The notes: a model not told the origin generated them from the sequence alone. A DNA stretch of 40,527 nt from an uncultured Candidatus Saccharibacteria bacterium (GCA_964634615.1 CAZWLQ010000005.1:1-40527), one strand, 5' to 3'. Numbered from the stretch's first letter, positions 10,617 to 40,527 are shown. Program-made: numbers and translations.

Positions 10617-11678
10617 ATGGCATTCAAAAAAGGAGGAAAAAAGGGTGAAGAAAAAGAAATGAAGTCGGTTCCAGAGGCGCGCGATATGAGCGTCCGACAA
10701 TCCGCAGAAAGCATCAACGAAACACTCCGAGCGATTCAAACAAAATTCGGCGACGAGTCAATCATGAAGTTGGGCGATCGACCGAAAGTGAACGTCGCTG
10801 CGGTTTCAACAGGTTCGTTGTCACTCGATGCAGCACTCGGTATCGGCGGACTTCCTCGTGGTCGCGTTATTGAAATCTTTGGGCCAGAATCATCCGGAAA
10901 GACGACACTTGCGCTCCACGTCGTTGCTGAAGCACAAAAAGCGGGTGGTGTGTGTGCGTTCGTTGACGCGGAACACGCAATGGATCCTGACTACACCAAG
11001 AAACTCGGCGTGAACATCGATGAACTCCTCCTTTCACAACCAGACACCGGTGAACAGGCGCTCGAGATTGTTGAGTCACTGGTGCGCACCGGAAAGATTG
11101 ATGTTGTTGTTATCGACTCAGTCGCTGCGCTCGTTCCAAAAGATGAAATTGAAGGTGAGATGGGTCAGAGCCACGTTGGTAAGCAGGCGCGATTGATGAG
11201 TCAGGCATTGCGAAAGTTGACCGGTATCGTCGCTCGCAGCAAAACAATCGTTATCTTCATCAACCAGATTCGCATGAAGATCGGTGTGATGTTTGGAAAC
11301 CCAGAAACAACGCCGGGTGGAAACGCTTTGAAATTTTACTCGTCGGTTCGTCTCGATGTGCGTCGCATCGCACAAATTAAAAAGGGTGAAGAGGTTGTCG
11401 GTGGTCGCGTTCGTGTAAAAGTCGTGAAGAACAAGGTCGCTGCCCCGTTCCGTCAGGCAGAATTCGATTTGGTCTACAACGAAGGAATCTCACTTGAAGG
11501 AGAGATGCTTGCACTTGGTGAGAAATACGAATTGGTCCAGAAAAACGGCGCGTCCTACAAATATGGCGATGTCGCACTCGGACGTGGCTACGACGCTGCC
11601 CGAACGTTCCTCCGCGAAACAAAAGATGTGAAAAAGAAGCTCCTTGCAGAGATTAAAGAGAAGTTAAAAGAGGCCTAA
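10617..11678 (+). CDS. recA: Recombinase RecA
   Basis: Walker [10 protein letters not shown], plus the FVDAEHA and IDSVAAL motifs. Confidence 0.95.
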
Positions 11679-20848: not shown

Positions 20849-21550
20849 TTATATCACATCAAACTCCTGGAACACCTGCCGATAGAGATCAATCACGCGT
20901 TTTGCTTCACGATTGGTAAGAATGTAGTCGGAACCCGAATGCGCAATGCGGTTACGAATCTTGTGCGCTTCCCATGCAAGATCAAGTGTTTGGAAATCGC
21001 TCTTCTCGACACCCTTTAACATGTCACCGAGTGAATCGCCATGGTATCCCATGCTTCGCACAAGTTCGTGAAGCGCAATGTCTGCTTCGATAATTGCAAC
21101 ACGCCAGTCACCGGGATTTTCAGACGACCCGAGTGTCTCGATTCGCTCCCATCGCTCGTTCTTATCCTTGTTTGCGTCACTTGATAGTTTTGCTTCAAGC
21201 ATCTTGAGTGTCGCCCGTTCTTTTTCACGTATCTTCTTCAACTGAAGAGATGCATACATTGCTCCTACACCAAAGACGACGGAAACAATCATTGATATCC
21301 AAAGAAATGGCCCGCGGAGCATTGCATACAGTGCCGTCAGAAAACCTGACCGCGAAAAAAGGGTGCGGAGCGCGTCCACAACAGATGTCTCGCCGTTTGC
21401 GTTGAGTACGCCACCAAGCGCAGATACGAGCGCAGCAATGACCGCCAGCAACACAAGAATCATAACCAACTTCGTTGCCGCGTCTGCATCGGTTATCTTT
21501 TTTGGTGCTGCGGGTTTTCCACCTCCTTTTCCTCCTGGTTTTTCTGCCAT
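20849..21550 (-). CDS. Conserved hypothetical membrane protein, 233 aa
   Basis: Lys/Gly-rich N-terminus, two TM segments, and a C-terminal helical domain (AWEAHKIRNRIAHSG). Confidence 0.65.
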   Translation of the reverse strand: MAEKPGGKGGGKPAAPKKITDADAATKLVMILVLLAVIAALVSALGGVLNANGETSVVDALRTLFSRSGFLTALYAMLRGPFLWISMIVSVVFGVGAMYASLQLKKIREKERATLKMLEAKLSSDANKDKNERWERIETLGSSENPGDWRVAIIEADIALHELVRSMGYHGDSLGDMLKGVEKSDFQTLDLAWEAHKIRNRIAHSGSDYILTNREAKRVIDLYRQVFQEFDVI

Positions 21551-23037: not shown

Positions 23038-23322
23038 CTATAGTATTTTCTTCACGCGAACATAGTTTCCCTCTCTCGCAGGTGCCTGTGCCAAAATCGC
23101 ATCAGTGTAGACACCGCTCTCATGAGGATTGATGTCGTCGCGAAATACGTTGAAGACCGCCCCTGTCTGTGGAACGTGCGCGTCACCCTCGTTTTTAGCG
23201 CCTTGAATCTGCTCAACGAATCCGAGGATATTTTCGCTCTCTTTAGCAAGTGATTCCGCCTCTTCGGTCGAGAGGTCAATACGGGCAAGCTTTGAAAGTG
23301 CCTGGATGTCTGGTTTGGTCAT
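23038..23322 (-). CDS. gatC: Glu-tRNA(Gln) amidotransferase subunit C
   Basis: MTKPDIQALSKLARIDLSTEE.. is typical of GatC. The ATG at 23322 is preferred over the ORF-track start at 23379. Confidence 0.88.
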   Translation of the reverse strand: MTKPDIQALSKLARIDLSTEEAESLAKESENILGFVEQIQGAKNEGDAHVPQTGAVFNVFRDDINPHESGVYTDAILAQAPAREGNYVRVKKIL

Positions 23323-23420
23323 ACGTGGAGCCAGTTTAGCATGATTTTTAGTTGTGATGATAGACAAAATAGCTATCAAAAAGGGTGGTGCTATAGTTTA
23401 GAAAGACAAAGGAGGAAACC

Positions 23421-23711
23421 ATGCCACCGAAAAAGAAGTCTAAAAGATCGTCGGGCGAAGTACCGCCAATCAAGCCCGTGGCTGTTGCACTCAAGGATTG
23501 GCCTGCGCATGCAAAAAGGACTCTTGAGGAAATCGAGAGGAGCGAGCGCTTGACCGCAGCAGACATGGCGGTGACCATCAACGCTCGTCCGCCAGAGGAA
23601 GAAGTTCCTACGCCTCGTTTTCCGTGGCAGAAGGAGCTTCGCGAGCGAGCAAAGCGAGCGCGTGCTGGTGAGCAGATCACCGCAAAAGATCTCAGCATTG
23701 TTGTTCGATGA
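23421..23711 (+). CDS. Orphan basic/helical protein, 96 aa
   Basis: Strong SD AAGGAGG 5 nt upstream of ATG, and its own terminator. A possible ribbon-helix-helix-like core (PVAVALKDWPAHAKRTLEEIERS) is speculative. Confidence 0.55.
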   Translation: MPPKKKSKRSSGEVPPIKPVAVALKDWPAHAKRTLEEIERSERLTAADMAVTINARPPEEEVPTPRFPWQKELRERAKRARAGEQITAKDLSIVVR

Positions 23712-23729
23712 CCTTCCTGTTCTTTGATA

Positions 23730-23756
23730 GCCCCGACTTGTTCGGGGCATTTGCGT
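23730..23756 (+). terminator. Terminator of 23421-23711
   Basis: gccccga-cttgt-tcggggc followed by atttgcgtt. Confidence 0.7.
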
Positions 23757-23761
23757 TGTAT

Positions 23762-23796
23762 AAAAAAGAAAAAGGCCCCGCAGGCGATGCGGGGCC
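23762..23796 (-). terminator. Terminator of module B (conserved with 24564-24597)
   Basis: Minus strand reads ggccccgc-atcgcct-gcggggcc followed by tttttctttttt. Confidence 0.85.
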
Positions 23797-23823
23797 GATG
23801 GAAAACGAACAGACCGAGAAAAA

Positions 23824-24396
23824 CTAAGCGGCGGGTTTAGAAGCGTCCTTCAGCGCCGCAGGAACGAAGTCCTTGAAGGAGGCGTCCGGCTTGAGGTCTT
23901 TGTAGCCAAGCCCAATGGCAGCGTCCCGCAACTCGCGGAAACAGCCGACCACACGAAGAAATGTCTCCTTCTTCTCCACCACCTTCAGTTGAGCGAGATT
24001 CTCGCCATCACCACTGTCGGCGCATGCGAGCGCACGCTCCGCATCGTTTAGTTCGAGGTTGGCAAGCCAGGCTCCAGATGCCAGTCTCGAAAGGTGCGCG
24101 AAGATGACTTCGAAGTCGACGCAGTATTTCCTGATGATCAGCTCACGTCGGTAGTTGCCGGCGATGTCTCCGTCCATCAGGTTGATCGGAACGAAGAAAA
24201 GGAAGGCGTTGACGGCTGCAACACCGATCGAAAGAAGGATCTTGGCATCTGTCTTGAGGCCGAAATCACTTTTCGCGATCAACAAGATCAGCGCGGCTGT
24301 GAGCAACAACCAACCGACCTTTCCGATCACTTCCGCAAACCGGCGCTCGAACTTAAGGTTTCTCATCTCCTTGCTGACATCACACTTGGTGGACAT
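23824..24396 (-). CDS. Orphan 2-TM protein, 190 aa (module B)
   Basis: SD AAGGAG 6 nt upstream of ATG. Two N-terminal TM helices precede a helical cytoplasmic domain ending ..GLGYKDLKP... Confidence 0.65.
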   Translation of the reverse strand: MSTKCDVSKEMRNLKFERRFAEVIGKVGWLLLTAALILLIAKSDFGLKTDAKILLSIGVAAVNAFLFFVPINLMDGDIAGNYRRELIIRKYCVDFEVIFAHLSRLASGAWLANLELNDAERALACADSGDGENLAQLKVVEKKETFLRVVGCFRELRDAAIGLGYKDLKPDASFKDFVPAALKDASKPAA

Positions 24397-24534
24397 CCAC
24401 TTCTCCTTCTCCCGCTATCGCGGGACTTAGTTCCCGCCACAACGGCCAAGTGAGATCGACTCACTAGAAGAGACGGTCGGCGCCTCTCAAGGAACTTTCG
24501 GAAAGATAGTGCTCCGAAAAATAAGTGTTGTCAA
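24397..24534 (-). promoter_or_regulatory. Module B promoter (TTGACA-17 nt-CACTAT), operator-like palindrome and ~100-nt conserved leader
   Basis: Blockwise identical to 25178-25312. The inverted repeat TTTCGGA-N9-TCCGAAA overlaps the -10 box. The leader contains GCGGGA-acuaag-UCCCGC-gaua-GCGGGA adjacent to the SD. Confidence 0.7.
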
Positions 24535-24563
24535 GATTATCCGAGGGGGTTCATCCGTATGTA

Positions 24564-24597
24564 TAAAAGAAAAAGGCCCCGCGTCGCGTGCGGGGCT
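24564..24597 (-). terminator. Terminator of module C
   Basis: Minus strand reads agccccgc-acgcgac-gcggggcc followed by tttttctttt. Confidence 0.85.
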
Positions 24598-24622
24598 GAA
24601 TGGAAAACGAGAGGCGGAGATA

Positions 24623-25177
24623 TCAGGAATCCGTTTCAGCAACCTCCGCGACGGGGGTCTTGTAGGCGGCCGAGGTAGCTTCGACCTTGTAGCCAAGCTG
24701 CTTGGCTAGGGCGTGGAATGCCCAGAACCTCGCCTTGCGCTCAGCGACGCTTCTTTTCGCATGCCACAACAGGCCGTGCATCTCTTCTGAATTGTCGTCT
24801 GCGGCAGCAGGATCAGCACACTTTCGACTCTCCGCCCGTTCTTGAAGAAGTACGACCTCCCGATCGAAAGCAGCTTCAAGATAGGAGTAAAGCTCCCGCA
24901 GTGTGGCATCGACGAGCGGGCTGAGGGTGAGCATCTGCCTAAAACGGATTTCCTTCTCCAGCCGTCGATGGACTGGCAAGGAGCATAGGGACTTGAGAAA
25001 GGTGATCCCAAGGAAGAAGGTGCTGAGAGTGATCCAGACGAACCACCCTTGTCCCTCCTTCACACTGGGGCCAAGGACCCACGATGCTAAGAAGGAGCTC
25101 CCCAATACCAGGATCCAGTAAAAAATGCGTAGTCGCTTCACATCCTTGCTCTTCATGAACTGCTCGTAACCAGACAT
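24623..25177 (-). CDS. Orphan 2-TM protein, 184 aa (module C), a distant paralogue of 23824-24396
   Basis: SD GGGGGAGG 6 nt upstream of ATG. It has the same topology as module B and shares short motifs (..CAD.. acidic patch, ..LGYK..). Confidence 0.65.
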   Translation of the reverse strand: MSGYEQFMKSKDVKRLRIFYWILVLGSSFLASWVLGPSVKEGQGWFVWITLSTFFLGITFLKSLCSLPVHRRLEKEIRFRQMLTLSPLVDATLRELYSYLEAAFDREVVLLQERAESRKCADPAAADDNSEEMHGLLWHAKRSVAERKARFWAFHALAKQLGYKVEATSAAYKTPVAEVAETDS

Positions 25178-25312
25178 CTGCTGCCTCCCCCGCCATAGCG
25201 GGACTTAGTTCCCGCCACAACGGATCTCGGAGCTCTTCTCCGAAACAGAGACGCTCTTCGCCTCTCAAGGAACTTTCGAAAAGATAGTGCTCCGAAAAGT
25301 AGACGTTGTCAA
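25178..25312 (-). promoter_or_regulatory. Module C promoter, operator-like palindrome and conserved leader
   Basis: TTGACA-17 nt-CACTAT with conserved blocks ccgaaagttccttgagaggcg and ccgttgtggcgggaactaagtcccgc. The variable hairpin is UCGGAG/CUCCGA here versus AGUGAG/CUCACU in module B. Confidence 0.7.
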
Positions 25313-25321
25313 TAGTTTCTC

Positions 25322-25353
25322 CTCTTCTCTGTTTCTGCAGAAATAGAGAAGAG
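25322..25353. repeat. 32-nt near-perfect palindrome at the ligA / island boundary
   Basis: ctcttctct-g-tttctg|cagaaa-t-agagaagag. It lies 8 nt after the ligA stop and just upstream of the module C -35 box. Confidence 0.8.
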
Positions 25354-25361
25354 TATTTTAT

Positions 25362-27362
<2,001 letters not shown>

Positions 27363-27696: not shown

Positions 27697-27737
27697 GCCC
27701 GTAATCTCATGCGTGAGATTGCGGGCATCGTTTTTTA
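27697..27737. terminator. 12-bp-stem terminator with a T-run
   Basis: cccgtaatctca-tgcg-tgagattgcggg followed by catcgtttttt. Confidence 0.8.
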
Positions 27738-28964
27738 ATAGGTTGCGCGAATCGCACGTTCAACACGGCGCGGGTCATCCATATCACAGGAATTGTAGCC
27801 ACGAGAAATGATAGTGGTTGTTGCTGCCGTTTTCGCCACCTCAATGGTTGCACAACGATTGTTCGCCAGAACAATATCAAATGTGGTTGATGCGCTGTCA
27901 GTTGTCGTTGAAACGTCCCAGCCAGTCTCAACATCCCATCCTGTTGCAGGGTCCGTAATGTCTGCGCCGAGACATGTCGCATTGCTTCCCTGCGCTACCG
28001 GTTGAACAAACATCAGGTTCGATTCTCTGTCATAAAGTTTTTCAATCTCTGTTTCTGAAAGCGCGCGGTTATAGAGTCGAACATCATCAATTGATCCACC
28101 CGTTAGTAATGAGGCGCTGTTTCGGGCTCCAATACCATAACTTTCATTCCTATCAGCAACATTTCCCGATCCCGTGTTTTGAATGTATGTTGTTTCTTCG
28201 TTTCCATTTACATACAGTTCAACGTTCGTACCATCATATGTCCACGCAATGTGGTACCACACACCCGGAGCGGCAACGGTCGTTGAGTCCGCAATATCCG
28301 ATCCTGTGTCACTATCAATACGAATACGGAATTTACTGCCACCACCTGTTCCTTGCATCTGCATTTGTACTTCAATGTTATTGCTCTGCGACACCAACAT
28401 TTGTTGATTTTCAACAGCAAGAAACTGCACCCAGAGCGACCCGCTCACCTCATCGGTGTAGTCAATGTCGGGAGTAAGGACAAAGTCGTTGATACCATCA
28501 AAAGAAATCGCGTCGCCAATCTGTCCATCAACCCAAGCAACGTTCGGATCCATATTCGTAAGTATGCCAACATTTCCCTGACCACTACTGTCAACCGCAA
28601 CCGCTGAGCCCGAGCCGTCTTCAAACCGCCAGTACCCCACGAGACTGTTCGCGAGACTGTCACCATAAAAACCAAACGCCGGTGATGAGAGCGCGTCATG
28701 TTTCAAATCCCAGTAGAGCGCGCATTCAAGACCTGTATCCGCAGCATAAAAGGCGTTCGCCGACTCGCGCGCACCGGATGAGAGAATCAGCTCTTTAAAT
28801 GTGATGTTAAAAATGGCGATACCGATTGCCAGCAACAGCGACGCGGTCAAAACAGCATAGAAAAGGGTAAATCCCTTCTGCTGCGCAGAAGTCTCAAATT
28901 TCAAATTCAAGATTCCAAGGGAATTCTTTCTTTGAAAACTTTTTTTTGTTTTGAACTTGAACAT
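27735..28964 (-). CDS. Pilin-like protein with a LamG/concanavalin-type jelly-roll domain (putative pilus tip adhesin)
   Basis: Prepilin-like QQKG|FTLFYAVL, with Tyr instead of Glu at +5. LamG-like strings include YWRFEDGSGS..DSSGQGN, WYHIAWTYDGTNVELYVNG and DDVRLYNRALSETEI. Confidence 0.75.
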   Translation of the reverse strand: MFKFKTKKSFQRKNSLGILNLKFETSAQQKGFTLFYAVLTASLLLAIGIAIFNITFKELILSSGARESANAFYAADTGLECALYWDLKHDALSSPAFGFYGDSLANSLVGYWRFEDGSGSAVAVDSSGQGNVGILTNMDPNVAWVDGQIGDAISFDGINDFVLTPDIDYTDEVSGSLWVQFLAVENQQMLVSQSNNIEVQMQMQGTGGGSKFRIRIDSDTGSDIADSTTVAAPGVWYHIAWTYDGTNVELYVNGNEETTYIQNTGSGNVADRNESYGIGARNSASLLTGGSIDDVRLYNRALSETEIEKLYDRESNLMFVQPVAQGSNATCLGADITDPATGWDVETGWDVSTTTDSASTTFDIVLANNRCATIEVAKTAATTTIISRGYNSCDMDDPRRVERAIRATY

Positions 28965-28994
28965 TGGATTTTATTTGGAGCTTGGTGTTTGGAA
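28965..28994 (-). repeat. 30-nt conserved block abutting the start codon of 27735-28964
   Basis: tggattttatttggagcttggtgtttggaa matches 29594-29623 at 28/30 positions. Confidence 0.85.
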
Positions 28995-29011
28995 CCTGGA
29001 TTTTATTCTTT

Positions 29012-29593
29012 CTACTGCCAATTCAGCAAATACTCGTCCGCTTCAACACTGCGAGAAATAAGACCGTCATACCATGACACCGAGACCACGACATGCATCT
29101 CGATACCTGAGATAGACTCCTCTATCGTAATGTCTCGAGTAAATTTTGTTTCCTTCCAATCAGAGCCACTGCCGTACCCATAGAGACCTGTTTCTTCGTT
29201 ATAACTCATCGGTCCGCACTCCTTACCGCACGATTCAACCTCGTTTTGTGGCACGTCAATGACGCATAAGCCGTCGAGACACGCATCAATGCCCAAGAGC
29301 CAGTCATCCCCTGAAAGAATGTTTGTATCACGAGTGTTTCTGATGTATTCAATTCCCTCTTGAATGAGGTAGGTGCCGACAACTTGATCACGCGCGATAC
29401 GTGATGCGGTCAGTCCTTGAGAACCAAGTGTCAGTGGCGCAGCAACCGCCATGAGCAACACCGTGATTGCGACCAGGGTTTCAATCAGGGTAAATCCTCG
29501 CTGTTTCGCAGAAAATCCAAAATACAAATTCCAAATGCCAAGGAGGTTTTGTTGCAGTGTTTTTGATTCTCTTGTGTTTGGAATTTGTGTCAT
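29012..29593 (-). CDS. Minor (pseudo)pilin with a prepilin-type N-terminus
   Basis: ..KQRG|FTLIETLVAITVLLMAV. The leader is long (33 aa) and contains LGIWNLYFGF. Confidence 0.8.
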   Translation of the reverse strand: MTQIPNTRESKTLQQNLLGIWNLYFGFSAKQRGFTLIETLVAITVLLMAVAAPLTLGSQGLTASRIARDQVVGTYLIQEGIEYIRNTRDTNILSGDDWLLGIDACLDGLCVIDVPQNEVESCGKECGPMSYNEETGLYGYGSGSDWKETKFTRDITIEESISGIEMHVVVSVSWYDGLISRSVEADEYLLNWQ

Positions 29594-29623
29594 TGGAATT
29601 TGTTTGGAGCTTGGTGTTTGGAA
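29594..29623 (-). repeat. 30-nt conserved block abutting the start codon of 29012-29593
   Basis: tggaatttgtttggagcttggtgtttggaa. Its first 20 nt recur inverted at 36751-36770. Confidence 0.85.
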
Positions 29624-29633
29624 TTTCTAGTAT

Positions 29634-30227
29634 TTATCTATCCAAGATTCGTTGGCTGACCAGTGTTTGCAAATCAAACCGTGTCTGTGTACGCGCATCG
29701 CCGGCAACGCCCGAAAGAACGATCAGTACTCGTGGTTGATTTGTGTCGCTTTCGCTCTCTCCATCGGCATAAAATTTTAACCTCTCGATAGTGACGTCTG
29801 GTGCGGTAAGTGCATAAAATGCGCCCGCAGAACCTTCTCGTCGTTCGATGCGGTTCGTTGCTTGGTTCAAACGATACGTGATGTCTTCTCCGTCAGTGCT
29901 CGTGAACATAAACTCTGTTGATCCGCTCGTCGCACAGGACGACACGCCACAGTCGTAGTTAGTTCCAACGCGTATCGCGCGTGTCATTGAATCAAGAGAA
30001 AAGTTAAGGTTATTCATAACCGCTTTCACCGCCTGCGCCTTTCTGTTTGCGCCAAGAATTGTTACGAGTGACCCCGTCGCAATAACCATCACGATAGAAA
30101 AAATGAAGATGGAGACAATCATCTCAATCAAGGTGAAGCCCCCATTACCGCGCACCATAGAGCACGGAGTGTATTGCGAAGGTGCGAGTATTTTTTTGTT
30201 ACATGGTTTGTGATACATGCTGTGCAC
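29634..30227 (-). CDS. Minor (pseudo)pilin
   Basis: ..GNGG|FTLIEMIVSIFIFSIV. An alternative ATG at 30158 would give a canonical 7-aa leader, MVRGNGG. Confidence 0.8.
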   Translation of the reverse strand: MHSMYHKPCNKKILAPSQYTPCSMVRGNGGFTLIEMIVSIFIFSIVMVIATGSLVTILGANRKAQAVKAVMNNLNFSLDSMTRAIRVGTNYDCGVSSCATSGSTEFMFTSTDGEDITYRLNQATNRIERREGSAGAFYALTAPDVTIERLKFYADGESESDTNQPRVLIVLSGVAGDARTQTRFDLQTLVSQRILDR

Positions 30228-30228
30228 C

Positions 30229-30885
30229 TTATCTGCCCTCTGACTCTACGCCACCGCCTTCATCAAAACCCGCTTCCGCTTCGTCTGGCCTATCAATGGC
30301 AATCTGCCCTGTTGATTCAATAATGACATACCGTATGCCCTGCTGTCGGCGTGAGATTATTTCAACCTGCGCACGTGCTATTTCACCATTGTTGATGATT
30401 GCGTCTGGCTCTGGGCGATGAAAGACGATATTGAGTTGCTTCACGCACGTGTCACTCTCGAGATCGCATAGTGATTTGACCGATGCGCCGCGTCCGATGG
30501 TATACATTTCAAGCAACTCGCCGGATTCAGCGCCACCGTAGGTGTTATCGCCATCGCGATCAGCAAACAAGACGTAGTTCTCTGAATCGGCTTCGAAGTT
30601 GACACCGTACGGGGCATCGAACTCGCCGCCTGATACACGGACGTTGATGCCGAACTGTTGGGCCTGACGAATTGAGAGCGCAATATCGTATGCGAGGTTA
30701 TTCAAAAGCACCTCATTGTCGAAGGAAGCATTACGAGCAATAACAATTGACGAGATAATCGCAAAAATCGCGACGGTCACAACCATTTCCACCAAGGTGA
30801 ACCCCCCTGACTTCGCCCTGGTGAAGGTTCCAAATCCAAGATTCCACGCTTCAAAAAATCTTTTTTTGTTTTGAGGTTGTGTCAT
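30229..30885 (-). CDS. Minor (pseudo)pilin
   Basis: ..KSGG|FTLVEMVVTVAIFAII. The leader contains EAWNLGFGTF. Confidence 0.8.
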   Translation of the reverse strand: MTQPQNKKRFFEAWNLGFGTFTRAKSGGFTLVEMVVTVAIFAIISSIVIARNASFDNEVLLNNLAYDIALSIRQAQQFGINVRVSGGEFDAPYGVNFEADSENYVLFADRDGDNTYGGAESGELLEMYTIGRGASVKSLCDLESDTCVKQLNIVFHRPEPDAIINNGEIARAQVEIISRRQQGIRYVIIESTGQIAIDRPDEAEAGFDEGGGVESEGR

Positions 30886-30903
30886 CCGAGTTTGGAGTAT
30901 TTC

Positions 30904-31734
30904 TTACAAAACTTCAATTAACGAGAGAATTGTTGTGTGCGTAAAGAAAACAAAAAGTGTCGCTGCGACCAAAAATGGCCCGAAGGGTATCTCGCTCTTC
31001 ATTGTAAGACGCTGCCCCCCGCGAGCCAATGAGAGATGTGTAGAAATCTTTCCAACAAGCACCGCGAGTACGCTCACAATTGCTCCCAACCAAATTCCGA
31101 AAATAAGTGCCGAGAAGCCGCCGAGAAGCCCAAGCATCATGCCCATTCCAACAGCAAGCTTCACATCGCCAAATCCCATGAATCGCCCTTTCGAAAGCGC
31201 CCAGAGTAGAAAGAGCGGGAACGCAACCGCAAACCCCGAAAGCACGACCATTATCGCGCCCGATATTGTCAGGCCGTAACCCACAAGACCCCAGAGGAAC
31301 GCAAGAACAATGTATGTGTACACCATGCCGTCAGGGATGATGAAGTGACGAATATCATATACAGCGATTGAAAGTAAAATAAAGATGGCCGTCCATGCAT
31401 AGAGCACAAAAAGATTCCCTCCGGGAGAAATCCCTGAAGAAAATGCGACGAGCGCTGCGGCCACAAAAAGTATGCCGAAGACAATTTCGACCAGGGCATA
31501 TTGCGGAGAAATCCGTGTTCCGCAGCTTCGACACCGTCCGCGCTGCAGAAAATAACTCACAACAGGTAAAAGTTCATACCACGAAAGCTTGTGTCCGCAG
31601 GAAGCGCAGCTTGAACGCCCATTCAATGATCTTCCTGTTCCCCACCGTAGGACGAAGACGTTCGCGAAACTGCCAATAATCGTGCCGAACACAAAAATAG
31701 CAATAAGAACAAGGTATGCTTCCTGAAGACTCAT
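30904..31734 (-). CDS. pilD: Prepilin peptidase (A24 family)
   Basis: N-terminal CASCGHKL...CRSCGTRI zinc motif, a multi-TM body, and FMGFGDVKL / IPFGPFL Asp-box regions. Confidence 0.9.
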   Translation of the reverse strand: MSLQEAYLVLIAIFVFGTIIGSFANVFVLRWGTGRSLNGRSSCASCGHKLSWYELLPVVSYFLQRGRCRSCGTRISPQYALVEIVFGILFVAAALVAFSSGISPGGNLFVLYAWTAIFILLSIAVYDIRHFIIPDGMVYTYIVLAFLWGLVGYGLTISGAIMVVLSGFAVAFPLFLLWALSKGRFMGFGDVKLAVGMGMMLGLLGGFSALIFGIWLGAIVSVLAVLVGKISTHLSLARGGQRLTMKSEIPFGPFLVAATLFVFFTHTTILSLIEVL

Positions 31735-31757
31735 ATGTATATAACTATACCTGACTC

Positions 31758-31790
31758 AAAACAAAAAACCCGCGCAAGGCAGGTTTTTTG
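31758..31790 (-). terminator. Intrinsic terminator or attenuator directly after the major pilin gene
   Basis: Minus strand reads aaccugc-cuu-gcggguu followed by ttttttgtttt. It is preceded by a second hairpin, ucgaga-uuccug-ucucga. Confidence 0.75.
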
Positions 31791-31814
31791 TTCTCTTCGA
31801 GACAGGAATCTCGA

Positions 31815-32225
31815 TTACGGAGCTACCCAGTAGTTCTCTGTTCCGCCGTTTGCTGCATCACACGCCGCATTCGACGATGATGTTGAAACACTTGCGGTGT
31901 CTTCAATCGTTGTTCCGAGACAGTAGCTTGTGGTGCTGCTTGATACGTAGACGTATGCATCACCGAGCGGATCGGCAGGGACACTTGCGATGAAGTCTGG
32001 TGCGAGTTCAGTTTCCCAACCTCCTGTTGTTGGGTATTCCTGGTTCGCATCGAAGTAGAGTTCTGATGCAAGCTTGATTTGCTGAAGGTCTGCGAGACGT
32101 CGTGCGTCGCGTGACTTTCGGCGAGCGCTGTTGAGCGATGCGAGAACGACAGACGAGAGAATGCCGATAATCGCGATCACCACCAAGAGCTCAATCAAGG
32201 TAAAACCTTTTTGGCTTTTCTTCAT
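31815..32225 (-). CDS. Major type IV pilin
   Basis: MKKSQKG|FTLIELLVVIAIIGILSSVVLASL is a canonical class III signal with Glu5. The protein is 136 aa and the gene is followed by a terminator. Confidence 0.9.
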   Translation of the reverse strand: MKKSQKGFTLIELLVVIAIIGILSSVVLASLNSARRKSRDARRLADLQQIKLASELYFDANQEYPTTGGWETELAPDFIASVPADPLGDAYVYVSSSTTSYCLGTTIEDTASVSTSSSNAACDAANGGTENYWVAP

Positions 32226-32339
32226 AAGGATCACTGATTAACCTAATTAATCTTCTAAAAAAGAAGTGCTAGTAACAGCATCCATTATAAAAACCCCATG
32301 AAATAAGGGAAATACGGGTGTGGATAACGCTCCGCTCAC

Positions 32340-32434
32340 TTTCTTTCTCAAAAACACGCGTCGCCACGTGCTCGTGGCGCGCTCACGCTCGGCCTCACTA
32401 GGCCTGCGCGAGTTTTTTGAGAAAGAAAACTCGC
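32340..32434 (-). promoter_or_regulatory. Structured element in the pilC-pilin spacer
   Basis: 15-nt perfect inverted repeat tttctttctcaaaaa (32340-32354) / tttttgagaaagaaa (32414-32428). It encloses hairpins cgccacg-tgct-cgtggcg and ggcc-tcacta-ggcc. The right arm can instead form a local 9-bp hairpin at 32408-32434. Confidence 0.55.
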
Positions 32435-32535
32435 TCTGTATGGTAAATGCAAAGACAAAAGGCCTGAAATACAAGGGCTAATTCGCGTTATTCGCGTCCT
32501 GCCGGGAGGCAGATTTGCGTTCATTCGCGCTTTTA

Positions 32536-33738
32536 CTAGAGTCCCGAGGAGATGTTGTAAATCGGAATAAGGACCGATGCCAAGAGGGTTCCGACACCGA
32601 GACCGAGAAGGACAATCATCGCTGGCTCAATCAAGTCAACCAACGTATCAACCGCATTCGTGACCTCTCGCTGATAGAAATGTGCGAGTGTCTTGAGAAT
32701 GTTGCCGAGCTCTCCTGTTTCTTCACCGATTTTAATCATCTGAATCATCACGTTTGGGATGTCTTTTGTACCACCCATTGCATCAGCAACCGGAGAACCC
32801 CCACGAACCGCCTCAACCGCATGGTTCAAAATATCTTCATACACTTTGTTGCCCACGACCGATGAACTAATCTCAAGCGCCCGAACCATGGGAATACCGG
32901 AAGAGAGCATGGTGTTCATGTTGTCAGCAATACGCGCAAGATAGAGTTTTCGAAACAAGGAGCCAATATAAGGAACCGCGAGCTTCACACGAGAGAGCCA
33001 TGATTGTCCTTTGTTCGTCGTAACGTATCGCCATGCGAAACCAACAGCAACAATTAAAATAATCAAAAAGAAGATACCGTAGTTCACCAAGAACTCTGAC
33101 AGCGCGATGACGACTGCGGTGTAAGCTGGCACCGCCTGTCCCGATTCTTCGAGAATCGTTGAAAGCTTTGGAATCACCGTTGTAAGCATCAGAATCATCA
33201 CAATACAGAACACCCCGATGACGAACGCCGGGTAAATCAAAGCATTTCGCGCCTTTGTAGTGATTTCGTACGACCGGTCGAGATAATCGGCAAGGTATGA
33301 GAAGGTTTGGTCGAGCTTTCCTGACTCTTCACCCGCACGCACCATGTTCACATAGAAGGCCGAGAATGCTTTCGGATGTTTTTCGAGCGCCTTGCTGATT
33401 GCACTTCCCCCTTGGAGGTCGTTTGCGACTTCGGCGAGTGCCTTACGCAAGTTCGGGTTCTCCGCCTCTTCGGACAAGAGACGGAACACACGGAGCGCCG
33501 AGACCTGTGCTTCAAATAGCGTTGCAATCTGGCGCGAAACAATCACCACGTCCTTGTTTGAGACGCCGTTGAAGAATGTAAAGTTCCCCAAGATTCCTGC
33601 TTCATCTTGTGCCTTGATTGAGACGATAATCAGCCCTCGCTGCTGAAGCGAACGCACTGCGACATCCTCGTTCAGGGCGTCGATGCTTCCTTTTGTCTCG
33701 TTATTTTCTTTGTCGAATGCAGTATAGGAAAAAAGCAT
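32536..33738 (-). CDS. pilC: Type IV pilus platform protein PilC (GspF family)
   Basis: 400 aa with two T2SSF repeats and three TM segments. Confidence 0.92.
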   Translation of the reverse strand: MLFSYTAFDKENNETKGSIDALNEDVAVRSLQQRGLIIVSIKAQDEAGILGNFTFFNGVSNKDVVIVSRQIATLFEAQVSALRVFRLLSEEAENPNLRKALAEVANDLQGGSAISKALEKHPKAFSAFYVNMVRAGEESGKLDQTFSYLADYLDRSYEITTKARNALIYPAFVIGVFCIVMILMLTTVIPKLSTILEESGQAVPAYTAVVIALSEFLVNYGIFFLIILIVAVGFAWRYVTTNKGQSWLSRVKLAVPYIGSLFRKLYLARIADNMNTMLSSGIPMVRALEISSSVVGNKVYEDILNHAVEAVRGGSPVADAMGGTKDIPNVMIQMIKIGEETGELGNILKTLAHFYQREVTNAVDTLVDLIEPAMIVLLGLGVGTLLASVLIPIYNISSGL

Positions 33739-33742
33739 AGTA

Positions 33743-33805
33743 TTAGCTTAAGAACACAATCGCCAGGATTCCTACAAGACCAAGCGCAATGTAGATTAAG
33801 GTCAT
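33743..33805 (-). CDS. Candidate 20-aa hydrophobic micro-ORF between pilT and pilC
   Basis: ATG ACC TTA ATC ... AGC TAA translates to MTLIYIALGLVGILAIVFLS. It starts 5 nt after the pilT stop and ends 4 nt before the pilC ATG. Confidence 0.35.
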   Translation of the reverse strand: MTLIYIALGLVGILAIVFLS

Positions 33806-33810
33806 GGTGA

Positions 33811-34881
33811 TTATATCAATTTATCGAGAATTGCCGGATTTAACGAATGCACTCGAGCATCTTCAACACTGATGACACCGTTTCTCACAAGCTCTGCGAG
33901 CGAACGGTTCATATCCATCATGCCGTACTCCGAACCGGTTTCAATCACCGAATCAATCTCATGAGTTCTTCCTTCTCGAATCAGGTTCGCGACCGCCTTC
34001 GTATTAATCAATAACTCGTATGCAGGGACGAGACCACCCGCTACGCGCGGAATCAATCGCTGTGAAAAGATTCCCAGAAGTGAGCCCGCGAGCTGCACAC
34101 GAACCTGTGATTGACTTTCTGGCGGGAACGAATCGATGATGCGATCAATCGTCTGTGATGCGTTGTTGGTGTGCAGTGTTGAAAGCACAAGGTGCCCCGT
34201 CTCTGCAGCGGTGACCGCAGTACCGATGGTTTCAGGTCCACGCATCTCACCAATCATCACCACATCAACGTCTTGGCGGAAAAGTTGCGTGAGCGCTCTA
34301 TGGAAATCGAGCGTGTCAACGCGGACTTCGCGCTGATTAATCATTGATTTTTTCGGTTCAAAGATGTATTCGATAGGGTCTTCAATCGTCACGATGTGAT
34401 CCGGACGCTCGGTGTTGATGAGCTCAATCATCGCAGCCAACGTTGTCGACTTACCGTGACCAACAGGGCCAACCACCAAGAAAAATCCTTGTTCGCGTCG
34501 GGCAAAATCTGCAAGCGCTGTCGGCAAACCGAGTTCCTCAAACGAACGAATGCTCTTTGGAATCAAGCGGAGCGCTATTGCAATCCTGTCGCGCGAGAAT
34601 GAGCAGTTCCCTCGAAAACGAATCGTATCGTTTTGATAGCTGTATGAAAAATCGACTTCTTTTTCTCGCAAAAAAAGTTCTTTGTTGGCAGGCGTCAGAA
34701 GGACCTCCATAAATCCTTTCGTATCGTCCGCCGTGAGCATTGCTTGGGCGACCAAGGGAATCATGAGGCCCGAGACGCGGATGGTTGGGTGATAGCCCGC
34801 GGTCAAGTGAAGATCCGACCCTCCTTGCTTGATGATCGTTTGAATGAGCTCTTCAAGTTGTGTTTCGTATTGCGATGCCAT
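33811..34881 (-). CDS. pilT: Twitching-motility (retraction) ATPase PilT
   Basis: GGSDLHL at the N-terminus, Walker A GPVGHGKST, and the typical ~350-aa PilT length. Confidence 0.92.
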   Translation of the reverse strand: MASQYETQLEELIQTIIKQGGSDLHLTAGYHPTIRVSGLMIPLVAQAMLTADDTKGFMEVLLTPANKELFLREKEVDFSYSYQNDTIRFRGNCSFSRDRIAIALRLIPKSIRSFEELGLPTALADFARREQGFFLVVGPVGHGKSTTLAAMIELINTERPDHIVTIEDPIEYIFEPKKSMINQREVRVDTLDFHRALTQLFRQDVDVVMIGEMRGPETIGTAVTAAETGHLVLSTLHTNNASQTIDRIIDSFPPESQSQVRVQLAGSLLGIFSQRLIPRVAGGLVPAYELLINTKAVANLIREGRTHEIDSVIETGSEYGMMDMNRSLAELVRNGVISVEDARVHSLNPAILDKLI

Positions 34882-34892
34882 AGCTTCAAAGA

Positions 34893-36719
34893 TTATACCA
34901 CGGGCTCTTCAGGCAGTGCGTCATCATTTTTGATAATGCGCTTCTCGTCAGTTGTCTCCGCTTCAACCACATCTTCATCTTCAAGAATGTCGTACGCGCC
35001 ACCAAGCGTGTTCACTTCTTCAAAGGGCACTTCCTTGCGCATGCTCTTGATGATTGCATCTTCACGCATCGTAAACATTCCCTGCTTTCGGGCGACTTCA
35101 CGAACTTTGGGTTCTGTTGGGTCGGTCAAAATCACACGTTCAAGATCTTTATTCATCTCAATCACTTCAAACACCGCGAGACGACCCCTGGTTCCTTTTG
35201 GACAGCTTTCTGAAGGTTCGATGCCGTAGAGTGCCTTGCCCTTGGGAATTTGTGAGCGATATTTTTCTGGAATATCAGCAAATTCCCTATCAATCATGAG
35301 TTTCATGCTGCCTTCAAGCGGAATCTCTTTGCCGGTATCAGGACAGAGTTTCTTCACAAGACGCTGCGCCATCGCGAGTGCCAATGTTGGTGCAATCAAA
35401 TACGGATCAACACCCATATCTATCAGTCGTGGGATAACGCCAATTGCACTGTTGGTGTGAATCGTTGAGAACACCAAGTGACCGGTCAGTGCCGCCTGCA
35501 CTGCAAGCTGTGCGGTCTCTTTGTCGCGAATCTCACCCACCATGATGATGTCGGGGTCTTGTCGGAGTGTCGTGCGGAGTCCTGATGCAAACGTGTAACC
35601 GATTTCAGGGCGCACCTGAGACTGATTCATACCAGAGATGTTGTACTCGACCGGATCTTCAAGCGAGAGAACGTTTTGACCCTCGCGATCAACCTCTTCA
35701 AGCATCGAATAGAGTGTTGTTGTTTTACCCGAACCGGTTGGTCCTGAAATCAGAATCAATCCGTACGGACGCGCGAGTGCGTTCCGCACGAGGCGCAAAT
35801 CGCGCTCTGACATGCCAATCTGGTCGAGCGGCAAAACACCCTTCTGTGGGTCAAGGATTCGCATCACCACCTTTTCTCCATAGTACGCAGGAAATGTCGA
35901 GACACGGAGGTCAATCTTTCGTCCTGAAATGTGCGCGGAGAAACGACCGTCCTGTGGTTTTCGTTTCTCGTCAATCTTCATGTTCTGGCAGAGAATCTTG
36001 ATGCGAGCAACAATTGCCGGATGCACATTCATTGGCAGTGTAAGGTTGGTTGTCATCAAACCGTCCACACGGAAACGAACCTTCAATAAATCATCGGTTG
36101 GCTCGATGTGAATGTCGGACGCGTTCTCCTCAACCGCATGGTTCAAAATCGTTGCGACGATTTTTGTCACCGGTGCATCCTCAACAATGGTTTCCTCTCT
36201 TTCTTCAATATCACCTCGGCCACGCTTTTCTGCCTTTTGTTGCTCGTTGTTCAGTTCCGATTCGAGGTCGGTAAGCGCTTCAGTGACCTCCCCCGAAAGT
36301 CCTTGATAATTCTTCAGTACATCTTCAAAGTCCTTTTGTGTAATTAAATAGAGCTTGTATGGCAGGCGTGTCTTTGCGGTTATAAATTGGAGCGCGTCCT
36401 TTGCTTCAATGTTGTCCGGGTCAACAATACCGACTTCAAGCGCATTGTCTGTCATGCCAATTGGCACAAAACTGTAGTGGCGTGCTGATTCCTCTGGAAT
36501 CGCATTGAGGACATCAAACGATATTTGTTTGGCATCAACGGTGCGGGTTGGAAGACCGTAGTGCATTCCCTTTGCCTCAAGGATTGTTGATGCGGCGACA
36601 CCTTCTGCACGAGCGACATCTTCGAGCGTTTCACCGCTTTCTTTTGCTTTTGCTTCTATCGCCCTTGCGTCGGCGTCAGAGAGCGATCCTTTTTGTACAA
36701 GTTCGTCTAGGAAGGACAT
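34893..36719 (-). CDS. pilB: Type IV pilus assembly ATPase PilB (GspE family)
   Basis: N-terminal T2SSE_N-like domain and Walker A GPTGSGKTT. The ATG at 36719 is preferred to the TTG at 36731. Confidence 0.92.
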   Translation of the reverse strand: MSFLDELVQKGSLSDADARAIEAKAKESGETLEDVARAEGVAASTILEAKGMHYGLPTRTVDAKQISFDVLNAIPEESARHYSFVPIGMTDNALEVGIVDPDNIEAKDALQFITAKTRLPYKLYLITQKDFEDVLKNYQGLSGEVTEALTDLESELNNEQQKAEKRGRGDIEEREETIVEDAPVTKIVATILNHAVEENASDIHIEPTDDLLKVRFRVDGLMTTNLTLPMNVHPAIVARIKILCQNMKIDEKRKPQDGRFSAHISGRKIDLRVSTFPAYYGEKVVMRILDPQKGVLPLDQIGMSERDLRLVRNALARPYGLILISGPTGSGKTTTLYSMLEEVDREGQNVLSLEDPVEYNISGMNQSQVRPEIGYTFASGLRTTLRQDPDIIMVGEIRDKETAQLAVQAALTGHLVFSTIHTNSAIGVIPRLIDMGVDPYLIAPTLALAMAQRLVKKLCPDTGKEIPLEGSMKLMIDREFADIPEKYRSQIPKGKALYGIEPSESCPKGTRGRLAVFEVIEMNKDLERVILTDPTEPKVREVARKQGMFTMREDAIIKSMRKEVPFEEVNTLGGAYDILEDEDVVEAETTDEKRIIKNDDALPEEPVV

Positions 36720-36844
36720 AGTGTGGTTCAAACTCTAAAATCCAAGAAATCAAGCTCCAAACAAATTCCATTATTCCAAAACCCAAATGGAAAGAGGAAA
36801 TATATGCCGTGTTTGGAAATTGGAATCTGGATTTTGGAATTTAA
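36720..36844. repeat. 125-nt spacer filled with TTGGAAT/ATTCCAA-type motifs in both orientations
   Basis: caagctccaaacaaattcca (36751-36770) is the exact reverse complement of 29594-29613. The right half reads gtgtttggaaattggaatctggattttggaattt. Confidence 0.75.
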
Positions 36845-37189
36845 TTACAGTGGCTCTGTCGTTGAAGCAGGTGCGGTTTCAACCGATTCAACCGTGCCGA
36901 TTGGTGCAAACGGATTTCGTCGGCCTATCGGCTCAGGAACCAATTTCACCGTGAAATCCTCGAGCGTCTGAAACGCCGCGTCCGCAAAAATAGCATCAGC
37001 GAGCGTAATCGACTTCAACTCAAGCAAGAGCGACAAAAGATCACCACCCTGCTCTGCAGGCAATCCCGATGGAGTCTCTGATGAGAGCGCAGCTTCCTCC
37101 TCTCCCCCAAAGAACGCCTTATAAAGGACGAACAGAAGAATCACGATGACTACGCCGATGATGATTTTTTTGATGGGTAGATTCTTCAT
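36845..37189 (-). CDS. PilP-like small anchored protein
   Basis: One N-terminal TM, ~114 aa, a C-terminal ..RRNPFAPIG motif, and a position after the PilN/PilO-like genes. Confidence 0.55.
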   Translation of the reverse strand: MKNLPIKKIIIGVVIVILLFVLYKAFFGGEEEAALSSETPSGLPAEQGGDLLSLLLELKSITLADAIFADAAFQTLEDFTVKLVPEPIGRRNPFAPIGTVESVETAPASTTEPL

Positions 37190-37190
37190 A

Positions 37191-37736
37191 CTATTTCAAC
37201 CAGTAGGTGGTGAGTGTCACGTTGTAGGTTGTAAGCCCTCCAGGTAATTCGGATGCTGTAAATGAAAGCGAGCTTACATCAATGATGCGAAGACTTCGTT
37301 CGAGATCGCCAAGAAACGCGCGGAAACGGTCGTATGTTGCCGCAACACTAAATGAAAGCGAAAGCCGACCAAACTCATCCCCCGATGGTCCAATCGCACC
37401 CTCCGTTGCGCTCTCATCGGGCAAGCCGATTGCAATACCCCCAAGAGACATCCCGTAGCGTGATGCGAGCGTGTTGATATCAATAATCAAACGGACGGTA
37501 TCGATACTATTTGGGAGCATCGTGTTCAAGCGATTGATGTTCTCCGATGAAAAGGCATTGTATTTCGAGAGAAGCGAGTCTCGGAGCGCAATCAACTCTT
37601 TCGAACGCGCGAGAGCATTGTCAAAAGAGTTCGCTTCGTCCTGAAGCGTGCGGACACCGGCATATCGCGCATTGGTGAAAAGCGCAAAAAGCGCAATTGC
37701 CGCAATGATGAGAATGATGCTGATGATGTTCTTCAT
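37191..37736 (-). CDS. PilO-like pilus assembly protein
   Basis: N-terminal TM, a coiled coil and a ferredoxin-like C-terminal half. The operon position fits. Confidence 0.6.
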   Translation of the reverse strand: MKNIISIILIIAAIALFALFTNARYAGVRTLQDEANSFDNALARSKELIALRDSLLSKYNAFSSENINRLNTMLPNSIDTVRLIIDINTLASRYGMSLGGIAIGLPDESATEGAIGPSGDEFGRLSLSFSVAATYDRFRAFLGDLERSLRIIDVSSLSFTASELPGGLTTYNVTLTTYWLK

Positions 37737-37741
37737 ATCGT

Positions 37742-38422: not shown

Positions 38423-38441
38423 AGGAGACGGTGCTCCCTAA

Positions 38442-38470
38442 AGTATACGGCGCAGCAATCACTGCTACAA
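38442..38470 (-). promoter_or_regulatory. Putative pilus operon promoter TTGTAG-17 nt-TATACT
   Basis: Read on the minus strand, 20 nt upstream of the ATG at 38422. Confidence 0.45.
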
Positions 38471-38545
38471 GTCTCAATGTGGGTTACTTATCCCTCTGAA
38501 AAACTTCGCTATCTTGTACTCACTCTGTAGACATTTTTCATTGCT

Positions 38546-39592: not shown

Positions 39593-39595
39593 GGC

Positions 39596-40489: not shown

Positions 40490-40527
40490 GACAATTCTGT
40501 TTTTAAGAAATAATCCGCACAACACCC

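Follow-up and report, generated by a model that had tools for sequence, protein, structure and literature searches.

A conserved leader RNA, probably a two-state translational switch, upstream of a fast-evolving orphan membrane protein family at the ligA-gatC junction of Patescibacteria

Introduction

In translational riboswitches and in the ROSE and fourU thermometers, a pyrimidine-rich anti-Shine-Dalgarno (anti-SD) element in the 5' untranslated region (UTR) can pair with the Shine-Dalgarno (SD) sequence, and the same nucleotides are doubly constrained by their part in mutually exclusive helices. Here we describe a leader RNA of about 104 nt that probably has both of these properties, present in two tandem copies between gatC and ligA in a 40,527-nt stretch of DNA (hereafter the window; GCA_964634615.1, CAZWLQ010000005.1:1-40527) from an uncultured bacterium labelled Candidatus Saccharibacteria, each copy preceding the gene for a protein with two predicted transmembrane (2-TM) helices. 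The leader departs from the known SD-sequestering switches in having no Rfam match and in the position of its anti-SD at the extreme 5' end, from which it would toggle between the SD and a hairpin arm. Unlike sensors of small molecules or temperature, it also carries two identical, module-specific pentaloops, which such sensors do not need.

Autoregulatory mRNA operators offer a second comparison, among them the ribosomal-protein leaders, the MS2 coat-operator hairpin, the pentaloop of lambda N-boxB and the twin GGA hairpins bound by CsrA dimers. By analogy, the loops of the present leader may act as sequence-specific protein sites, for which two equivalent copies would suit a dimer, and the sequence of the loops varies with the gene that follows. 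In contrast to those systems, the candidate binder here is a fast-evolving 2-TM protein with no recognisable RNA-binding domain, its binding is hypothetical, and the loops contain neither GGA nor GNRA-like motifs.

Two classes of toxin-antitoxin system also invite comparison. Type I mRNAs of the hok/sok kind resemble the units described here in their membrane product, in the occlusion of the SD within a structured mRNA and in a possible complementarity between 5' and 3' ends; however, the proteins of the present locus are three to four times larger, a promoter scan detected no antisense gene, and toxicity is hypothetical in this case. In type III (ToxIN-like) systems the gene follows a pair of similar hairpin units and a strong hairpin, as it does here, but the units of our leader are 21 nt long, just two in number and different in their stems, its third hairpin has no U-tract, and the product is a membrane protein rather than a ToxN-type RNase. 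The defining features of type III systems are absent, and we rejected that class.

Among proteins, the nearest described counterparts are the SLATT/DUF4231 2-TM proteins of conflict systems, which are predicted pore-forming effectors (PMC9226505). Like the products of the present locus they have two transmembrane helices followed by a helical region of about 100 aa, and their genes, like those described here, are small, mobile, fast-evolving and located in variable loci. They differ in that only two of the six members of the family reported here match SLATT/DUF4231 profiles, below the cut-offs, that no nucleotide-signalling, reverse transcriptase (RT) or sensor gene accompanies our units, and that a PADLOC search was negative.

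Results and Discussion

Tandem modules and conservation of the leader

In the window, the slot between gatC and ligA holds a tandem duplicate of a leader-plus-2-TM unit together with an extra gene of 96 aa. Both units lie on the minus strand. Module B runs from a promoter (24506-24534, with -35 TTGACA at 24529-24534 and -10 CACTAT at 24506-24511, read from the sequence) through a 5' leader (24397-24500) and a coding sequence (CDS) of 190 aa (23824-24396) to an intrinsic terminator (23764-23796, comprising a hairpin at 23774-23796 and a T-run), and module C repeats this order with a promoter at 25284-25312 (-35 TTGACA at 25307-25312, -10 CACTAT at 25284-25289), a leader at 25178-25278, a CDS of 184 aa at 24623-25177 and a terminator at 24566-24596. 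The 142 nt of upstream sequence (24400-24541 against 25178-25319) are 78% identical overall. Within them, the blocks GAAAGTTCCTTGAGAGGCG and CCGTTGTGGCGGGAACTAAGTCCCGC match exactly between the modules, where shuffled sequences would be expected to yield 0 matches. A terminator region of 59 nt is likewise common to both, the terminator of B aligns with those of C and of the relatives, and a terminator scan calls the terminators of both modules, each a G+C-rich hairpin with a U-run after it. This shared layout, the conserved blocks and the near-identical terminators had been pointed out in a first-pass annotation made from the sequence alone, and all are in place. The best explanation of the locus as a whole, which we hold at a probability of roughly one half, is that it consists of tandem monocistronic units, each with a sigma70-type promoter, a structured 5' UTR of ~104 nt, a small inner-membrane protein of a single orphan family, with two TM helices and a helical hairpin on the cytoplasmic side, and an intrinsic terminator, and that the 5' UTR is a cis-regulatory leader working as a two-state switch.

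The leader recurs with the same type of gene at the same slot in related genomes (L001, L039/L040, L041 and L042-44), whose junctions were reached by an exact scan for the leader core in one genome per species and through relatives of LigA. Six leaders are known, five of them independent, all within one narrow clade. A covariance model built from the six scores every copy at 103-116 bits (109.6 for B and 110.7 for C), and the leader always lies directly upstream of a gene of the slot family; with this model, neither the window nor 12 related loci (140 kb) yielded a further copy. Between the window and L041, LigA is 67% identical in amino acid sequence, the four-fold sites of ligA are saturated at 22% identity and the slot proteins are 19-21% identical, whereas the leaders retain 76% identity, the unchanged stretches measuring 15 nt (block 1, GTTCCTTGAGAGGCG) and about 10 nt or less. 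The corresponding values for L039 are 90% for LigA, 47% for ligA four-fold sites, 21% for the slot protein and 88% for the leader. The block GTTCCTTGAGAGGCGNNNNNCGTCTC is identical in all six leaders. The first-pass claim that the regulatory RNA is conserved above the level of the protein is borne out by these figures. Because blocks of the leader are identical where ligA four-fold sites are saturated, the leader is under strong purifying selection, and neither chance nor recency accounts for its conservation; the slot protein, by the same comparisons, evolves exceptionally fast.

The first-pass annotation had itself raised a less remarkable scenario, in which a very recent duplication left two decaying CDSs under relaxed constraint between flanks that are merely young. 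Modules B and C are indeed adjacent, with flanks 78-100% identical. However, species with saturated ligA synonymous sites have this leader and terminator too, the two open reading frames (ORFs) are uninterrupted and recognised by the family profile, C has a full-length relative elsewhere that is 47% identical, the ratio of nonsynonymous to synonymous substitution (dN/dS) is 0.20 for the family (L041 against L042), and the changes at the C-terminus of B in a close strain, L005, are synonymous only. We consider decay excluded by these results; the slot genes are functional and under purifying selection between close strains.

The leader is best described as a lineage-restricted and apparently previously undescribed cis-regulatory RNA. 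A search of the whole window against Rfam 15 gave gathering-level matches to two tRNAs only, and the best match within 23300-25400 (E = 0.18, 21.8 bits against a cut-off of 50) sits on a terminator. A metagenome scan with an 18-mer from the third hairpin, P3 (GCGGGAACTAAGTCCCGC), returned 32 loci, all of them unrelated terminators or chance matches; the P3 loop varies in relatives. To our knowledge few cis-regulatory RNAs have been reported for the Candidate Phyla Radiation (CPR)/Patescibacteria, and a literature search for them turned up none, so that the leader would be a clean candidate for a new family, rare for the CPR, whose two-state mechanism can be put to the test.

Two alternative folds of the leader

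Consensus folding with RNAalifold and single-sequence folding both give three hairpins, P1, P2 and P3 (in module B at 24469-24487, 24446-24468 and 24412-24445), with single-sequence z-scores of about -4.1 to -4.5 for the sense strand against shuffles. P1 (AGAGGCG/CGUCUCU) is invariant and includes a G-U pair that works on the transcribed strand only. In P2, compensatory changes affect five of the nine pairs, with G-U intermediates and with pairing retained; the covarying hairpin noted in the first pass, AGUGAG/CUCACU in B and UCGGAG/CUCCGA in C at the same position, was found again, together with covariation of P2 across the leaders. The top of P3 (GCGGGA/UCCCGC) is invariant, and the three-strand arrangement GCGGGA/UCCCGC/GCGGGR, also described earlier, is kept in six of six leaders, the third strand in B being the GCGGGA at 24410-24415. 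Paired cells amount to 91.7% overall (91.7-98.2% across the pairing tests), compared with about 45-52% when partners are slid. A conserved sense-strand structure, compensatory changes and a single type of downstream gene are what is expected of a structured cis-regulatory 5' leader.

A second set of helices, mutually exclusive with the first, joins (A/U)GUUCC at the 5' end to GGAAC(U/A) in the 5' arm and loop of P3, and UCCCGC to the downstream GCGGGR. These helices (columns 5-11/68-74 and 77-82/87-92 of alignment A6) are 100% paired in the six leaders, and 0 of 500 shuffles match their observed percentage paired or covariation score. In the L041 clade, a U to A change in the P3 loop is matched by an A to U change at the 5' end, converting an A-U pair to a U-A pair (in helix P4) between positions ~65 nt apart. 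Constrained folding with P1-P3 imposed gives -43 to -49 kcal/mol, and every leader then completes its structure by pairing the 5' UUCCU with the SD (in B, anti-SD UUCCUU at 24489-24494 and SD AAGGAG at 24403-24408); with the alternative helices imposed the energy is -35 to -40 kcal/mol and the SD is unpaired. All six leaders can form both arrangements.

The anti-SD, anti-anti-SD and SD elements probably constitute a two-state translational switch. In state A, which is thermodynamically favoured, P1, P2 and P3 would form, the 5'-terminal UUCCU(U) would pair with the SD and translation would be off. In state B, the 5' (A/U)GUUCC would pair instead with GGAAC(U/A), in the 5' arm and loop of P3; UCCCGC, once released, would pair with the downstream GCGGGR, and translation would be on with the SD free. 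Since most of the conserved nucleotides have two alternative partners, such overlapping pairings would explain the near-absolute sequence invariance of blocks 1 and 2, and with it an RNA conserved in sequence and not in structure alone, while P2, with a single partner, would covary freely. We infer the switching, its trigger and the function of the protein from these patterns, and the transcription start from the position of the promoter, which predicts 5' ends close to CGAAAG, at about 24497-24499 in B and 25275-25277 in C.

Several of the same observations are difficult to reconcile with conserved blocks that serve as DNA and are bound, downstream of the promoter, by transcription factors acting as roadblock or activator, with the two hairpin loops as direct-repeat half-sites 21 bp apart. 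The pairing of P2 survives five compensatory changes and passes through G-U intermediates, on the other strand the invariant G-U pair of P1 would become a C-A mismatch, the A-U to U-A change couples positions about 65 nt from each other, sense-strand fold energies lie about 4 standard deviations below those of shuffles, and no candidate DNA-binding protein is common to all loci. A role as DNA would nonetheless account for a leader that is for the most part invariant and not covarying, for twin 5-mers exactly 21 nt apart, which is about two helical turns, and for GCGGGA-N6-TCCCGC, which is a perfect DNA palindrome. On balance we find it decidedly unlikely.

A metabolite or ion riboswitch would use the three-way junction of P4, P1 and P2, with its conserved 11-nt strand CCGUUGUGGCG, as an aptamer whose ligand shifts the equilibrium between states A and B. 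The bistable architecture with a conserved junction, directly upstream of a membrane protein gene, would be in keeping with this, but we think it very unlikely given the extremely narrow distribution of the leader, a downstream protein whose rate of evolution is much too high for a conserved transporter, and module-specific loops, two versions of them in one cell, that would be unexpected for a small-molecule sensor. A leader peptide within P3 (24420-24440 and 25198-25218) was considered and rejected, as these frames have no SD and their downstream frames are inconsistent between leaders. In the P3 frame GTG GCG GGA AC(U/A) AA(G/A) UCC CGC both differences between clades are synonymous, probably by chance.

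Twin pentaloops

P1 and P2 carry 5-nt loops that start exactly 21 nt apart, and their sequences change together. Both loops are AAGAG in leader C (25254-25258 for P1 and 25233-25237 for P2), CAUAU in L001 and again in L041/L042, and CCAAU in L039; in leader B they are CCGAC (P1, 24476-24480) and UCGAU (P2, 24455-24459). Loop positions are identical within a leader in 23 of 25 cases, against 2.2 of 5 for non-cognate pairs, and this match is reached by only two of 120 permutations, both trivial. Gene conversion is an unlikely cause of the parallel loop changes because the stems of P1 and P2 differ consistently from each other. Pairing of the loops within the cognate mRNA was rejected, as a search there found no complement, and so was loop-loop kissing, which would not be general given that only CAUAU and UCGAU are self-complementary. 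The parallel change of the two loops remains unexplained.

The leaders with CAUAU loops (L001, L041 and L042), presumably the ancestral type, encode mutually recognisable proteins (phmmer, 1e-14), the most diverged proteins are those of leaders with derived loops, and B and C carry different loops within one cell. Because the loops are twins within a leader, differ between leaders and track protein divergence, the pentaloops of P1 and P2 would be recognised by a module-specific, probably dimeric partner, which is the most speculative step in our argument. No module-specific factor other than the module's own product is in view, so a dimer of that protein would be the most economical loop binder, and autoregulation of this kind would insulate the paralogues B and C from each other. 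In its full form, the pentaloops would be a specificity code through which the dimeric membrane protein, by way of a cytoplasmic domain at about residues 75-190 or its basic N-terminus, binds its own leader and sets the switch between A and B, a proposal we regard as distinctly doubtful. Were it true, the operator RNA and a hyper-variable protein would co-evolve, B and C would be mutually orthogonal autoregulatory circuits, and the locus would provide a natural case, in a CPR bacterium, of self-specific RNA-protein recognition that diversifies rapidly, as well as a compact model of RNA operator-protein co-evolution and of paralogue insulation after duplication.

A number of points weigh against the switch and its proposed partner. 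The six leaders (five independent) come from a single narrow clade, and their conservation between close strains may partly reflect recent exchange, as synonymous divergence (dS) is lower in the island than in its flanks. Most helices are invariant, covariation resting on P2 and one pair of an alternative helix, and the lower stem of P3 is broken in L041 and L042. Unconstrained partition-function folding predicts pairing of UUCCUU with the SD strongly only for B and L039. The -10 box of the window, CACTAT, is weak and was missed by the consensus scan, and the transcription start is predicted from the promoter position. The slot protein is no more than a putative RNA binder, for which the AlphaFold2 (AF2) model is of low confidence and a fold search gives generic helical bundles, and the twin loops could equally be read as direct-repeat DNA sites two helical turns apart.

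The slot protein family

The B and C proteins give no pairwise alignment (BLASTP E = 8.9); they share the motifs CAD and LGYK and the 12-mer GCTTGGCTACAA, in register. With phmmer the proteins of L001, L041/L042 and L039 are linked to one another (1e-14 and 1e-5) and not to B or C. Nevertheless, a profile of the four relatives' proteins scores B at 21.4 bits and C at 15.0 bits over almost their full length, compared with maxima of 6.6 bits (B) and 5.3 bits (C) in 500 segment-preserving shuffles. All members, which range from 169 to 230 aa, have a basic N-terminus, two transmembrane helices (N-terminal in B and C) and a helical region, in B and C a C-terminal helical hairpin, and a C-terminal motif common to them reads F-[FWY]-A-[FLV]-R...G-[YF]-[KR]-V...[SA]-[FY]-K. 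On this profile evidence, B, C and their relatives are one lineage-specific, fast-evolving orphan family. The first-pass description of coding regions that share only a 2-TM topology and short motifs is accurate for pairwise comparison; the further idea that they are unrelated cargo is not, as homology emerges at the profile level.

A word-indexed protein search with B found B alone, and a HMMER search of 1.8 billion representatives with a profile of B and C returned B, a fragment of C, P0125, which is a full-length C-like relative 47% identical to C, and two probably spurious repeat proteins. The AF2 model of B is all-helical with low overall confidence (pLDDT 58), rising to pLDDT 73-86 over residues 95-165, which form a helical hairpin; Foldseek with this model gave generic helical bundles only (E > 0.2), and a PDB profile search with the slot proteins gave no match. 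Nothing rose above threshold in Pfam, PADLOC, PHROGs or NCBIfam for the slot proteins or the 96-aa protein. Sub-threshold matches to the SLATT clan were obtained for the L042 protein only with DUF4231 (E = 0.032, 15.1 against 24.7 bits) and for the L041 protein only with SLATT_1 of NCBIfam (E = 0.055, 13.4 against 41 bits); SLATT/DUF4231 profiles did not match B or C, none of the six members reaches the clan cut-off, and no nucleotide-signalling, RT or other conflict-system partner gene was found at the loci. We therefore treat a relationship to SLATT/DUF4231 as a lead only.

These results bear on the interpretation first offered for the locus, that of a regulated slot whose interchangeable, unrelated membrane effectors are controlled by a DNA-level operator, TTTCGGA-N9-TCCGAAA, possibly bound by the 96-aa protein. 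We regard this as rather unlikely. The two SLATT-clan matches, which are to 2-TM pore effectors, would favour it, and so tightly structured a leader would suit a product that is toxic when over-expressed. Set against this, the proteins of B, C and the relatives are homologous, and PADLOC, PHROGs and Pfam contain no significant match; an assignment to toxin/immunity, phage exclusion or defence finds nothing at threshold in these databases.

The ligA-gatC junction in related genomes

A LigA homologue search places the organism in the Patescibacteria, its nearest named relatives being of Parcubacteria/Paceibacteria type. The exact scan for the leader core had a single hit, in L001 (CAYZIR010000001.1), a contig of a metagenome-assembled genome that is titled Candidatus Saccharibacteria; the closest named LigA relatives of the clade are Pacebacteria, Campbellbacteria and others, and the Saccharibacteria label of L001 is probably an automatic mis-assignment. 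In L001 the order is gatC, a 96-aa-like ORF, one module, a palindrome and ligA, with the slot in the same position as in the window, and the stem of the terminator is preserved through a C-G to A-T change. L005, a 94%-identical strain, was recovered with the window's own proteins, as were contigs of identical strains; SRR12762274, SRR12762323 and ERZ2272202 are among the samples in which the strain of the window occurs.

At the remaining junctions the content of the slot varies, and every locus has ligA, gatC/gatA and type IV pilus genes as its neighbours. L039/L040 (LigA 90% identical to that of the window), L041 (67%) and L042-44 (66%) each have one 2-TM gene, preceded by this leader and followed by a similar terminator. 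The slot is empty in L048 (5645-5658; LigA 64%) and L049 (5507-5534; 65%). In L045 (2131-2729; 64%) and L051 (5510-6075; 66%) it contains an unrelated, soluble 126-aa orphan on the other strand, the two proteins being 41% identical to each other (E = 4e-16), in L052 (3872-5257; 66%) a 227-aa orphan with about 500 nt of extra non-coding DNA, and in L055 (2557-2897; 66%) an apparent small membrane ORF on the opposite strand. The comparison of this junction between relatives, which the first-pass annotation had suggested, identifies it as a variable hotspot of which the leader-plus-2-TM unit is one recurrent occupant. The 126-aa orphans of L045 and L051 each come with the leader hairpin TCGGATCATCCGATCC.

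Synonymous divergence inside the island is 2-4 times below that of the flanking ligA, gatC and gatA in two independent strain pairs. Between L041 and L042, dS is 0.15 in the island and 0.50-0.70 in the flanks, and between the window (23421-24396) and L005 it is 0.06-0.11 against 0.24-0.38. Moreover, a block of raised identity between L041 and L042 begins at the stop codon of ligA and covers most of the slot gene (L041 7985-8600). The low island dS and this block suggest that the unit was exchanged recently between related strains, which fits the presence/absence polymorphism of the slot, and the ligA-gatC junction is an orphan-gene hotspot in reduced genomes. A slot that is empty in L048 and L049 and holds other orphans in L045/L051, L052 and L055, with signs of recent cassette exchange, is also what interchangeable effectors would produce, but the single-gene loci contain no immunity or sensor partner gene, and BLASTN of the island DNA against phage and plasmid sequences gave no match. 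Viral contigs scanned with both leader blocks gave 0 matches. Two kinds of mobile unit were considered and rejected. An integron-type gene cassette does not fit units that each have their own promoter and terminator, and no integrase was present in the ORF list of the window or in the relatives; a mobile element or miniature inverted-repeat transposable element (MITE) does not fit a unit with no terminal repeats and no other copies by the covariance model.

Promoter, inverted repeat and flanking features

All six loci keep the -35 box (TTGACA/TTGACG) and the position of the -10 box. Relatives have TATTAT or TATATT as the -10 hexamer, whereas the window and L039 have CACTAT, with 3 of 6 consensus positions. 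The sole promoter listed by the consensus scan in the region is a promoter-like TATACA-18-GATAAT at 24536-24565 (minus strand), between the module C terminator and the -35 box of module B. The putative operator TTTCGGA-N9-TCCGAAA, which lies over the -10 box (24496-24519 on the minus strand in B), was confirmed as sequence along with TTGACA-17-CACTAT, being perfect in B and having one mismatch in C, but it is not conserved: it is present in B, C and L039 and absent from L001, L041 and L042, and because of this absence it lies outside the conserved core.

The 96-aa basic orphan gene (23421-23711, plus strand, from an ORF call) has an SD, AAGGAGG, at 23409-23415 and is followed by a terminator-like hairpin (23730-23748, plus strand; 7-bp stem with six G-C pairs and a weak T-run). 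Homologues 97% and 75% identical occur in L005 and L001, and the gene was found only in these and the window. With dN/dS of 0.13 and 0.16 the ORF is a real gene, as first supposed. No such ORF is present at L039, L041 or L042, and a protein absent from these loci cannot be a general regulator, which also counts against its proposed part in a system of interchangeable effectors. Its suggested ribbon-helix-helix (RHH) character likewise found no backing: no RHH family was listed for it in Pfam or NCBIfam, a PDB sequence and profile search was negative, the sole listed Pfam match was DUF1490 (E = 0.015, 15.8 bits against a cut-off of 28.4), and the AF2 model (pLDDT 61, low confidence) contains no beta strand, the beta-helix-helix pattern being visible by eye only. 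The first interpretation is accordingly unsupported in its toxin/immunity, operator and RHH parts.

A box with the sequence CG(C/U)CUCUC occurs 4-20 nt past the stop codon in five of the six modules (C, L001, L039, L041 and L042; CGCCUCUC at 24609-24616 on the minus strand in C); in B it is degenerate. The box shows full complementarity to the 5' arm of P1 (GAGAGGCG), with a background of 0.0011 per nt. The box could pair with the leader from 3' to 5' end of the message, or it could be a second copy of a protein site; long duplexes between leader and 3' UTR computed with RNAduplex are dominated by G+C-rich stems and hence uninterpretable. In a hok-like type I toxin, this pairing would silence the mRNA until processing activates it, whether or not an antisense RNA takes part, and the predicted sequestration of the SD and the membrane product would suit that type. 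We find such a system highly unlikely here: the products, at 169-230 aa, compare with type I toxins that are usually under 60 aa, the promoter scan found no opposite-strand promoter in the region from which an antisense RNA could arise, and the box, besides being degenerate in one module, is also a copy of the 3' arm of P1, so that its partner may be the same factor and not the leader.

The 32-nt palindrome reported at the ligA end of the slot is present (25322-25353, 94% complementary), with the stop codon of ligA on one side and the promoter of module C on the other. It is found in L001 as well, was looked for and absent at the L041 and L042 junctions, and is replaced in L039 by two other long hairpins. 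Paired long perfect hairpins with centres ATTCGCGCGAAT and ATTCGCACGAAT occur in L001 (~7095-7175, on the downstream side of the module) and L039 (~11345-11425, on the upstream side), and may be repetitive extragenic palindromic (REP)- or MITE-like elements tied to rearrangement of the slot.

Outside the slot, a 233-aa protein (20849-21550, minus strand) has an N-terminal transmembrane segment and weak C-terminal matches of HEPN type (CTD11, E = 0.012; HEPN_Swt1; RiboL-PSP-HEPN), and an unannotated gene of 226-232 aa occupies the same position, downstream of gatA, in L039, L041, L042 and L051. Upstream of ligA, a type IV pilus-like cluster in the window (27735-40525), in which the LamG gene was confirmed and the remaining genes are taken from synteny, is syntenic with one in L039 (194-9025) that encodes a LamG-domain pseudopilin, N-methyl pilins, a prepilin peptidase, a T2SSF/PilC-family protein and T2SSE-family ATPases.

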